Assembly: GCA_965112155.1 (NCBI GenBank)
Contig: OZ218108.1
Source of the DNA: Podarcis liolepis
Taxonomy: Eukaryota
Reading direction: 5' to 3' (one strand)
Length of the DNA: 64,000 nucleotides
A program made the position numbers and the translations under genes. Shown here one piece after another: positions 27,519-32,599 of this stretch (position 1 is its first letter; every line of letters starts with the position of its first letter). The notes under the pieces are model-generated. The model did not search any database, was not told the origin of the DNA, and was given only the letters and a program-made list of their open reading frames with translations.

Positions 27519-30230
27519 TCATAGAATCATAGAGTTGGAATAGACCACAAGGGCCATCGAGTCCAACCCCCTGCCAAGCAGGAAACACCATCAGAGCACT
27601 CCTGACATATGGTTGTCAAGCCTCTGCTTAAAGACCTCCAAAAGAGGAGACTCCACCACACTCCTTGGCAGCAAATTCCACTGTCGAACAGCTCTTACTG
27701 TCAGGAAGTTCTTCCTAATGTTTAGGTGGAATCTTCTTTCTTGTAGTTTGGATCCATTGCTCCATGTCCGCTTCTCTGGAGCAGCAGAAAACAACCTTTC
27801 TCCCTCCTCTATATGACATTCTTTTACATATTTTAACATGGCTATCATACCACCCCTTAACCTCCTCTTCTCCAGGATAAACATGCCCAGCTCCCTTAGC
27901 CGTTCCTCATAAGGCATTGTTTCCAGGCCTTTGACCATTTTGGTTGCCCTCCTCTGGACACATTCCAGTTTGTCAGTGTCCTTCTTGAACTGTGGTGCCC
28001 AGAACTGGACACAGTACTCCAGGTGAGGTCTGACCAGAGCAGAATACAGTGGCACTATTACTTCCCTTGATCTAGATGCTATACTCCTATTGATGCAGCC
28101 CAGAATTGCATTGGCTTTTTTAGCTGCCGCGTCACACTGTTGGCTCATGTCAAGTTTGTGGTCAACCAAGACTCCTAGATCCTTTTCACATGTACTGCTC
28201 TCAAGCCAGGTGTCCCCCATCTTGTATTTGTGCCTCTCATTTTTTTTGCCCAAGTGCAATACTTTACATTTCTCCCTGTTTAAGTTCATCTTGTTTGTTT
28301 TGGCCCAGTTCTCTAATCTGTCAAGGTCGTTTTGAAGTGTGATCCTGTCCTCTGGGGTGTTAGCCACCCCTCCCAGTTTGGTGTCATCTGCAAATTTGAT
28401 CAGGATGCCCTTGAGTCCATCATCCAAGTCGTTGATAAAGATGTTGAATAAGACCGGGCCCAAGACAGAACCCTGTGGCACCCCACTAGTCAGCCAGTTA
28501 CAAATCCACTGAGTGGTAGCATAGTCAATACTGCATTTTACCAGCTTCTTTACAAGAATATCATGGGGCACCTTGTCGAATGCCTTGCTGAAATCAAGGT
28601 AGGCTACATCCACTGCGTTCCCTTCATCTACCAGGCTTGTAATTCTGTCAAAAAATGAGATCAGGTTAGTCTGACTTGACTTATTTTTCAGAAATCCATG
28701 CTGACTATTGGTGATCACAGCATTCCTTTCTAGGTGCTCACAGACTGTTTGCTTAATGATCTGCTCCAGAATCTTCCCTGGTATTGATGTCAGACTGACT
28801 GGGCGATAATTATTTGGGTCCTCTCTTTTCCCCTTTTTGAAAATAGGGACAACATTTGCCCTCCTCCAGTCTGCCGGGACTTCGCCTGTTCTCCAGGAAT
28901 TCTCAAAGATGACAGCCAGTGGTTCTGAGATCACATCTGCCAGTTCTTTTAATACTCTTGGATGCAGTTCATCTGGCCCTGGAGACTTGAATACATCTAA
29001 ACTAGCCAAGTATTCTTGTACTATCTCCTTAGTTATTCTGGGCTGTGTTTCCTCTGCTGAATCATTTGCTCCAAATTCTTCAGGTCGGGTATTGTTTTCT
29101 TTATCGGAGAAGACTGAGGCAAAGAAGGCATTGAGGAGTTCAGCCCTTTCTGTGTCCCCTGTTTGCATTTCACCATCTTCTCCTCTGAGTGACCCCACTG
29201 TTTCTTTGTTCTTCCTTTTGCTACAAACATACCCATAAAAGCCTTTTTTGTTGCTTTTAACCTCTCTAGCAAGCCTGAGTTCATTCTGTGCTTTAGCTTT
29301 TCTGACTTTGTGTCTACATGTGCTGGCTATTTGTTTGAATTCCTCTTTGGTGGTTTCCCCCCTTTTCCATTTTTTGTACACATCCTTTTTAAATCTTAAC
29401 TCAGTTAAAAGTTCTTTAGATAGCCACCCTGGCTTCTTTAGGCACCTTCCATGTTTCTGTCTCATTGGTATTGCCTGAAGTTGTGCTTTTACTATCTCCC
29501 TCTTAACAAACTCCCAGCCATCATGAACTCCCTTTCCTTTTAGTATTACTGTCCATGGGATCTCACCCAGCACTTCCCTAAGTTTTATGAAGTCGGCTTT
29601 CTTAAAGTCAAGAAATTGAGTCCTAGTATGCTTGGCTGCTCCTTTCCACTGTATAGTAAACTTCAGAAGAGCATGATCACTCGCGCCTAATGATCCTTCC
29701 ACTTCTACCCCACTAACCAGGTCATCAACATTGGTTAGGACCAGATCTAAAATGGCTGTTCCTCTTGTTGCTTCTCCCACTTTCTGGACAATGAAGTTGT
29801 CTGCAAGGCCAGTGAGGAATCTGTTTGACCTTATGCTCTTGGCTGAGTTTGACATCCAACAAATATCCGGGTAATTGAAGTCCCCCATTACTACTATCTC
29901 CCTTCCTTTTGCCTGCTTGGCCATCTGTTCCAGGAAGGCATCATCTATGTCCTCCATTTGGCTTGGGGATCTATAGTAAACTCCCACAATGAGGTCTCTG
30001 TTATTCTTCTCTCCCTTAATTTTGACCTAAATGCTCTCACTTTGGCTTTGAGGTTCTAAATCTTGGATCTCTTCACAGGTATACACATCCCTGACATATA
30101 ACGCCACTCCTCTTCCTTTCTTGTCTGGTCTGTTTCTCTGAAATAGATTGTATCCCTCCATTATTACATTCCTATCGTGGGACTTATCCCACCAGGTTTC
30201 AGTGATGCCTATTATGTCATATTTAGTTTG
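27519..30230 (-). mobile_element. CR1 LINE, 5'-truncated (~2.7 kb), young
   Basis: ORF2 with APE endonuclease and RT motifs. The CR1 3' UTR ends in the ATTCTATG-type octamer repeat (tcatagaatcatag at 27519 on the + strand). Homology stops abruptly at about 30230. Confidence 0.96.
27591..30230 (-). pseudogene. CR1 ORF2 (endonuclease + reverse transcriptase), disabled
   Basis: 798-aa open segment with GDFN, ILDLVL, SDH, YLDFSKAFD, GVPQGSVLGP and FADD motifs. The frame extends upstream (YDIIGITETWWD...GVALYV) through a TAG at 30027-30029. The N-terminus is missing and there is an in-frame deletion before GVPQG. Confidence 0.92.
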
Positions 30231-31000: not shown

Positions 31001-31552
31001 ATAAGGATACCTAACAGAAGGGAAGGCACTTTGGCAAATCACAGACCACATATACCAGTAACAATGCCCCGGGATAAAAAACCAACAGATTACATCCACA
31101 CACTCCTTGGAGATTTCATTTGAAAACCTTCCATATAATTTATAAATTAATTCCTTTCTTAAGATTTCCCAAATGGCAGCAACTGCAAGGCAAAATGTCA
31201 GCATGTTCTCATTGCACCCGGCTCTAAAGAATTGGTTTTAAGTTAGCTCAACAACAACGTTTCCTTGATCACCTTCCACTTCTGCCACCAACCCTGGTGG
31301 ACATTTTAACATTTGTTTAGCATGACACAGATAACCATTGTGCTGTTAGCAAAGTGCACCACTAAGGTCTTCATCAGACTGGAGGGTGGGGAAAACACAT
31401 TCGCACAAGTTGCCGAATCTTAACACACAAATTTATATGTCTTAGAAACATAAATTTGAAGTTACAGATAGGTAACCGTGTTGGTCTGCCATAGTCAAAA
31501 TAAAAAAATTCCTTCCAGTAGCACCTTAAAGACCAACTAAGTTAGTTCTTGG

Positions 31553-31588
31553 TATGAGCTTTCGTGTGCATGCACACTTCTTCAGATA
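31553..31588 (-). ncRNA. Second hammerhead motif (mirror copy, 3-bp stem I)
   Basis: Exact reverse complement of 31598-31633; stem I is only UAU/AUA. Confidence 0.6.
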
Positions 31589-31596
31589 GAAGAAGT

Positions 31597-31634
31597 GTAT
31601 CTGAAGAAGTGTGCATGCACACGAAAGCTCATAC
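31597..31634 (+). ncRNA. Minimal type I hammerhead ribozyme motif
   Basis: GTAT-CTGAAGA-A-GTGTGCATGCACAC-GAAA-GCTC-ATAC: stem I GUAU/AUAC, core CUGANGA, stem II hairpin, GAAA, palindromic AGCU in place of stem III, predicted cleavage after CUC (31630). Confidence 0.75.
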
Positions 31635-32599
31635 CAAGAACTAACTTAGTTGGTCTTTAAGGTGCTACTGGAAGGAATTTTTTTATAAATTTGAAGGTGA
31701 GGCATATTCCTTGTAGGAGAATTGCACTGATCAGCCCAAGTTGCTAAGTGTTTTCTACACCTGACAGGTCAGCAGAAACAGCCCCACTAGTGGTGATTAC
31801 ACATCCTTTTTATGCTTCTGATGCACGTTATACCAGAAAAACTCCTCTGGCTCATGAGAACCGACACATTTGGGTGGATCCACGCAACATTTTACACCCA
31901 AGCTTTAGTTCAAAGTGCTGAACTCAGGAATGCTTCCCTCATTATCTAGCTTAAACACAGAAGTGTTCCTACACGATGCTCCCATATCTTCAGTGACCTT
32001 CAAACAGAACACCAAAGGAAGGATTGACTCATTGTTTCAGATTAATCATTTAAAATAACCCCACAGATATACTGGGGTCCTGGCTCAGCTGTCCTTAGAG
32101 CTACATGCATATTTTAACTTTCCCCATGTTACATTTTTAGAGTAATATAGCACAGGAAGAAAAATCATATGATATAAACAACTTGATTGCGTTAATCCAG
32201 AGCTGTGTATCCACTCCAAAGCAGGCACGCAACTCCTGTGCCTAAAGTCCCATTCATTTCAATAAAGATGGGTTGCCATATGACAAGAAGTAAAAATCCA
32301 GACACAAAAGTTGTTGAGCTCAGAGTTGTTGGGCTTTCTTGGGAATTCACCCAAAAAAGGCAAAGAGTGATACTCAAATGCACATTTCCAGGTGGCAAAA
32401 ACCCAGACATTTTTCTGATTTTGTAGAGGGAGTACTTTGGCATAGAGCAGTAGTTCAGTCCTTAAAAGAAAGGCAACTCTTCATCTACACTGAAACACCT
32501 GCAAAACAGTGCTAGATCAGAGTGAATATATGAAGTTGATATATATTATCAGTGATATCAACTTAGAATATCTTAAGCAAAAAACAAACACCTACATAT

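Follow-up and report, generated by a model that had tools for sequence, protein, structure and literature searches.

Head-to-head stump of a young Penelope-like element in Podarcis liolepis, probably primed from both target strands on one RNA

Background

Insertions of EN+ Penelope-like elements (PLEs) are described, in the portions of PMC8557442 and PMC3846280 that we draw on, as having an inverted 5'-truncated copy beside the 5' end, a tail of 30-40 bp on one side, target-site duplications (TSDs) around the whole unit, palindromic head-to-head junctions, and TATA-like and Inr-like motifs in the pseudo-LTR (pLTR). The insert analysed here, which lies in a 64,000-nt stretch of Podarcis liolepis DNA (the window), has this same layout with an inverted pLTR and a tail at one end, but its arms are cut to ~90-130 nt. 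Apparent TSDs in its family are 12-15 nt long as against 8-10 bp in the account of Adineta, and the 5' ends of its family pile up at the Inr-like site, a pattern not found in those portions of PMC8557442 and PMC3846280.

Relevant sections of PMC4209133 describe minimal type I hammerheads of PLEs that resemble those of the insert in their 4-bp helix I, the unpaired nucleotide before stem II, the palindromic 15.2-16.2 and their mostly dispersed, truncated copies, and they report that reptiles have related motifs and that dimers show low activity. Stem II is 7-8 bp in the Schistosoma motifs of those sections, whereas here it is 5 bp and itself a 14-nt palindrome, and the opposite-strand hammerhead pairs reported there are 100-700 bp apart, in contrast to cores that are separated here by only 15 nt. 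The Poseidon element PAc of the green anole, so far as the excerpts of PMC11167929 describe it, likewise has a hammerhead in its pLTR close to where the ORF begins. As in our family, its tail is delimited by two 3' boundaries and its targets are AT-rich, and its template is uncleaved RNA, which we propose for our family as well. Our family differs from PAc in its CX4CxxC linker, which is of the Neptune/Nematis type, and its ORF begins inside the tail, with the ATG about 60 nt past the cut site, rather than within stem II.

Non-LTR retrozymes, as outlined in part of bioRxiv 10.64898/2026.07.22.740005, are also short and non-coding with a type I hammerhead and an origin in PLE pLTRs, but they form head-to-tail tandem arrays, whereas the insert is head-to-head and non-repeating. 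Membership of the retrozyme class was rejected because head-to-tail tandem hammerhead units are absent and an inverted pair is present instead. In LINE-1 twin priming, both target strands prime on one RNA and a 5' inversion results within one TSD. The same double use of one RNA is proposed here, but LINE-1 arms copy non-overlapping parts of the RNA, whereas the arms here usually overlap almost fully, so that the same stretch of RNA would be copied twice.

The layout of inverted pLTR and single tail is already published, as is the minimal hammerhead. The locus is genuine but is a PLE stump of an ordinary kind, of which the genome has about 1,500. Literature searches covering largely papers outside subscription found no publication that explains PLE inversions by twin priming, and, within article texts apart from supplements (that of PMC11167929 may bear on insertion ends), none that maps stump ends to a start site.

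Anatomy of the insert and its target site

The earlier note had claimed a 223-base insert with a 12-bp TSD at 31462-31684, and the sequence bears this out. The insert is bounded by the direct repeat ATAAATTTGAAG, present on the plus strand at 31450-31461 and again at 31685-31696, and its left flank is single-copy in the assembly. Element positions are counted here from the A of the Inr-like TTCAGT (+1). The tail-less arm, at 31594-31684 on the plus strand, begins exactly at this A, runs to about +91, and ends in a U-rich tract, where 2 nt (AT) are microhomologous to the target; the last 2 nt of the left TSD also fit the element's continuation, again a microhomology. The tailed arm, at 31462-31588 on the minus strand (locus L001), runs from +5 to about +130 through hammerhead, U-rich tract and tail.

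Together the arms form an inverted repeat of 89-nt arms (31500-31588 and 31598-31686) that are 100% complementary across a gap of 9 nt. The description of the minus-strand hammerhead as an exact mirror copy nevertheless fails. Its stem I, at 31552-31588, begins CUAU and keeps 3 bp, the fourth pair being a C-C mismatch, and has a predicted pair probability of 0.01. The arms are also unequal, the minus arm being the longer by a tail of ~38 nt (31462-31499), which is found on this arm only. Because these extra 38 nt contain the ATG of the parent ORF (31492-31490) and its first ten codons (MADQHGYLSV), the arm consists of a pLTR followed by the PLE tail known from parts of PMC11167929 and PMC8557442.

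The junction insert between the two arms, GAAGA at 31589-31593 on the plus strand, is a re-copy of element +10 to +14. Given this 5-nt repetition, and the presence of AGTGT in the element at both +1 to +5 and +15 to +19, the sequence suggests template slippage at the template end.

Parent element and family

The link to Penelope made in the earlier note was confirmed when the arm was identified as the pLTR belonging to a tandem unit of 3,008 bp that carries a 910-aa ORF with RT and GIY-YIG domains. This unit lies between two cores in L097-L101, where the pLTRs are partial tandem copies. Both the genome count and the parent that the note had called for were obtained: the 34-nt core has 11,672 exact occurrences in the 1.57-Gb genome, longer family copies run upstream into the end of the GIY-YIG ORF, and out of 6,384 candidates in a protein search 150 matches were scored, several of them within 926-aa stop-free frames. 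The parent ORF (L099:1819-4551, 910 aa) matches RVT_1 (E 1.3e-11) and GIY-YIG (E 2.1e-5), both above the Pfam cut-offs, and has a CX4CxxC linker, CNKPRCQLC, upstream of GIY-YIG. A Zn-finger-like CX2-5CxxC linker between RT and EN marks Neptune and Nematis in the relevant part of PMC8557442; judged by its sequence, the parent is a young Penelope-like element, Neptune-type by a linker motif common to Nematis.

Back-to-back cores with a spacer of at most 30 nt were found 1,504 and 1,507 times by strand (~1,500), with 0 in the controls, and spacers, junctions and arm ends vary among loci. The ~10-kb head-to-head insertion L097+L098 (G000:C1:101118568-101128724) contains two 926-aa frames, both intact and with 99-100% identity to L099, which points to very recent activity. 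With its youth, its abundance and its intact 910-aa copies, the family provides insertion statistics that constrain those steps of PLE integration which follow first-strand priming.

The hammerhead motifs

The plus-strand hammerhead at 31597-31634 is as the earlier note gave it, with a 4-bp stem I (GUAU/AUAC), CUGAAGA, an extra unpaired A, GAAA and the palindromic AGCU; its stem II is 5 bp and the predicted cut falls after 31630. The class marks of the minimal type I hammerhead are all present (CUGANGA and GAAA boxes, an NUH triplet, and an unpaired base before stem II), and the core pattern occurs twice in the window as against 0 times in 100 shuffles. The Rfam search that had been proposed as a check gave no hammerhead family at E<=10. 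Such minimal motifs were recovered by a relaxed descriptor in the sections of PMC4209133 that concern them. All 21 Rfam matches to the insert fell below gathering scores, and 19 were miRNA models fitting the hairpin; a miRNA identity was rejected since these matches reflect the hairpin and are below threshold. Palindromes of this kind are a trap for miRNA, MITE and retrozyme annotation.

Covariation supports the hammerhead fold at the level of sequence. Among 26 motifs of other families from the same genome (30 of 49 matches fetched, less four main-family rows), 70 of 104 stem I cells were paired, compared with 31 and 34 in slid controls and a shuffle mean of 53.9, and 69 of 104 stem II cells were paired against a shuffle mean of 49.3, although these statistics ignore relatedness. 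Compensatory swaps in the stems were of the types U-A/C-G and A-U/G-C. The same genome also contains at least two older hammerhead families (L194-L223), with other stems I and II and a triplet ending in UU.

The proposal that a read-through transcript would mask the ribozyme holds in silico: the predicted hairpin has an energy of -172.7 kcal/mol and pair probabilities of 0 for stems I and II. Both stems are predicted to form in the isolated 47-nt plus motif, and stem I to be lost in the 91-nt arm. Dimer pairing was predicted to be most stable at the stem II palindrome (duplex energy -25.2 kcal/mol) and not at AGCU (-3.9). The stump has no TATA box, and because of this and the predicted burial of both ribozymes in the 89-bp read-through hairpin, it is probably inert.

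Paired arms and their priming

We examined 129 pairs from four samples, namely a C1 sample not chosen for pairing (set A) and sets of long, best-match and back-to-back pairs. An adjacent inverted arm was present at 48 of the 87 core-bearing insertions at the start of contig C1. Across all samples, exactly one arm carried a tail in 122 of 129 pairs, and an apparent TSD of 12-15 nt accompanied 88 pairs, with none detected in 24. Tail-less arms end in a cluster at +90 to +102 and tailed arms at +126; as the reference subfamily differs past +126, the true tailed ends are at about +126-132. The same layout was seen with arms up to 2.5 kb.

In set A, which covers only the first 5.4 Mb of the one contig, 28 of 47 pairs were non-nested, 10 nested and 9 equal (28/38, p=0.005), with the tail-less arm reaching further in the 5' direction in 28, the tailed arm in 10, and neither in 9. 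This bias was absent or reversed in the chosen samples, where the non-nested, nested and equal pairs numbered 5, 9 and 1 (long), 1, 4 and 15 (best-match), and 4, 3 and 33 (back-to-back). At L120 and L121 the tail arm comprises merely +95 and +91, respectively, to +126, which we take to be the classic LINE-1 twin-priming form.

The long pairs, which came from the protein search, bear on whether mates had a common template; nine pairs of medium length could not be used for this, being too short or too old. Arm differences per ~1,030 nt were 0 in nine of 13 long pairs, 1 in three and 5 in one, so that mates differed by 0-1 in 12/13, whereas median differences from other arms were 13.5-31. All 23 two-copy variants were common to mates, and the 5' ends of mates lay within 25 nt of each other in 7/14 long pairs (0 of 20,000 permutations; L100, a tandem, was left out). 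One arm, L106b, was identical to arms of another locus. The junctions of the long pairs L104, L110, L114 and L116 contain AT-rich or iterated inserts of 15-40 nt, which presumably resemble the templated insertions of polymerase theta.

We consider it probable that a young Neptune-type PLE inserted here head to head in minimal form, with both nicked target strands priming the RT on one uncleaved RNA. The GIY-YIG nuclease would make a staggered cut of ~12 nt, the size being indicated by the TSDs, in a target met by an element RNA that would begin at the TATA/Inr-like site of the pLTR, at +1. One DNA 3' end would prime at the end of the tail (~+126-132) and the other 30-40 nt upstream (~+90-102), and the RT would copy through the intact hammerhead up to the 5' end of the RNA, after which microhomology and a short templated insert would link the two cDNA ends head to head. 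The second arm may be a second pass of the RT, or it may arise by fold-back with bridging to a short cDNA of the tail, and either would leave the same sequences. Since non-nested arms require two priming events, and shared variants with matched 5' ends indicate one template, we infer that double priming, run-off and microhomology joining account for these three features.

For the anole PLE in vitro, the portions of PMC11167929 concerned report that the RT starts at two internal sites, which delimit the tail, that both strands are nicked and extended, that the protein assists cleavage, and that the template is predominantly RNA left uncleaved; this support comes from a Poseidon-clade element and not from the family studied here. 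We regard the evidence as evenly poised on a broader reading, by which PLE integration would routinely copy the same uncleaved RNA from two starts 30-40 nt apart via both nicked strands. On this reading, double priming would directly produce the inverted pLTR with its one-sided tail, each ~130-nt stump would be a full run-off copy of the mRNA 5' end and would map the promoter, and the inserted ends would owe nothing to the hammerhead. These ideas give the existing in vitro system predictions to work with, namely that the RNA starts at +1, that priming occurs at two sites, that a single RNA serves both arms, and that cleavage has no role.

The arms might instead arise by fold-back only, with a single tail-primed cDNA that reaches the 5' end of the RNA, snaps back, copies itself, and stops before the tail. 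Self-priming has been proposed for head-to-head junctions in the part of PMC3846280 that treats them, and a fold-back would account for arm identity, matched 5' ends and palindromic junctions, as well as for the nested or equal pairs (19/47 in set A, with 9 nested among the 15 long pairs). A fold-back copy must, however, sit inside the first arm, whereas 28/47 pairs of set A have sequence unique to each arm, and the tail-only arms of L120 and L121 also speak against it. Deletion at the palindrome centre after insertion should favour neither arm, but 28 versus 10 was seen. Fold-back in this pure form fails on the non-nested pairs and we think it unlikely, although the identity of the arms could come from fold-back or from later gene conversion as well as from double priming.

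The 5' boundary and the start site

The element contains TATATAGA at -30 of TTCAGT, and by consensus we take these two motifs to be TATA- and Inr-like. The 5' ends of 101 cores from the first 5.4 Mb of C1 lay at -3 to +8 in 55 cases, at -10 to -4 in 0, at -30 to -11 in 2, and further upstream in 44. Genome-wide, the 33-mer +5 to +37 had 10,785 matches and the 33-mer -21 to +12 had 3,958. Because the sample of 101 needed an intact core, arms were re-sampled by +38 to +70, which has 15,534 matches genome-wide, and the first 100 were taken: 48 start at -3 to +7, 16 at +9 to +29, 36 upstream, and 0 at +30 to +38. The arms are likely not to be random truncations; they stop at the TATA/Inr-like site, like run-off copies of the RNA 5' end. 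The modal 5' end is +2/+4, not +1, which counts against the proposed start.

Ribozyme cleavage is ruled out as the source of this boundary, as 0/100 arms start at the cut, and for the same reason the hammerhead is, on the evidence of the sampled arm ends, an inherited passenger at this locus. A stall of the RT at the hammerhead was held unlikely, since the RT reaches that structure from its 3' side.

Among the listed holders of the sequence, none of the public sequencing runs was recorded as RNA. Four raw RNA runs from a related species (2 studies) contained mostly read-through of dispersed copies on both strands, with 85-92% continuing into unlike sequence; in these mostly read-through data, molecule starts did not pile up at +1, nor read ends at the cut. 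Loose read ends at +2 to +5, ~+90 and ~+126 correspond to boundaries seen in genomic arms. The RNA of the related species thus gives no direct sign of a transcription start and bears on neither promoter nor cleavage, and an RNA start at +1 is a prediction. In runs X21 and X22, 19 reads join +192 back to exactly +1 (L099:1720 and 1911) with unknown letters between, which could reflect either a genomic copy in tandem or an RNA circle that begins at the predicted start.

The boundary at +1 to +5 might alternatively reflect splicing, with CTTCTGTTTCAG/TGTAT as the 3' splice site, or processing of the RNA end, the mechanism being otherwise as proposed. A pyrimidine tract and CAG do precede +3, the 5' ends peak at +2 and 0, and in the D. 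virilis Penelope, according to the passages of PMC4209133 on it, an intron reaches as far as the 5' end of helix I. Solo copies that start there are nevertheless preceded by host flank or a TSD with no common upstream exon by eye, a TATA-like box lies at -30, and no splice joint into +3 occurs among the joints listed for the related-species RNA reads. We therefore find splicing or processing doubtful, a good deal more so than fold-back, and prefer a transcription start as the origin of the boundary.

Spread as a unit and separate templates

The earlier note had left a choice between an extreme truncation product and a ribozyme-only non-autonomous element. The former is closer to what was found, and the latter, a retrozyme- or MITE-like palindrome mobilised as a unit, is very improbable. 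The ~1,500 similar palindromes and the single TSD around the whole unit would fit such an element, and non-LTR retrozymes derive from PLE pLTRs in the account given in part of bioRxiv 10.64898/2026.07.22.740005. The junction 35-mer, however, has 1 match in the 1.57-Gb genome, which indicates that this palindrome did not spread as a unit and largely refutes MITE-like mobilisation at this locus. Junctions, spacers and arm ends vary between loci, the same layout occurs with arms far longer than these, and the insert has no tandem array, no TATA box, and ribozymes that are predicted to be masked.

An origin of the arms in two independent RNA molecules, one per arm, would suit the dimeric protein predicted for a related PLE in part of PMC11167929, and matched ends need no common template where both arms stop at +1 to +5, as here, but the private variants that long-pair arms have in common (23/23) and their closely matched 5' ends (7/14) make it scarcely credible beside double priming on one RNA.

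Two further palindromes from C1 depart from the usual form. L053/L054 (G000:C1:2374860-2375282) is a head-to-head pair whose centre is split by about 240 nt of unrelated, SINE-looking sequence, and L224 (G000:C1:38768-38863) is centred on the stem II palindrome, with both arms starting from +16 and CUGAAGA absent on either strand. Within the window itself, a stop-free frame of 811 aa at 27591-30026 on the minus strand has domains of AP endonuclease and RT and is a LINE ORF2 fragment, which we take to be CR1-like.
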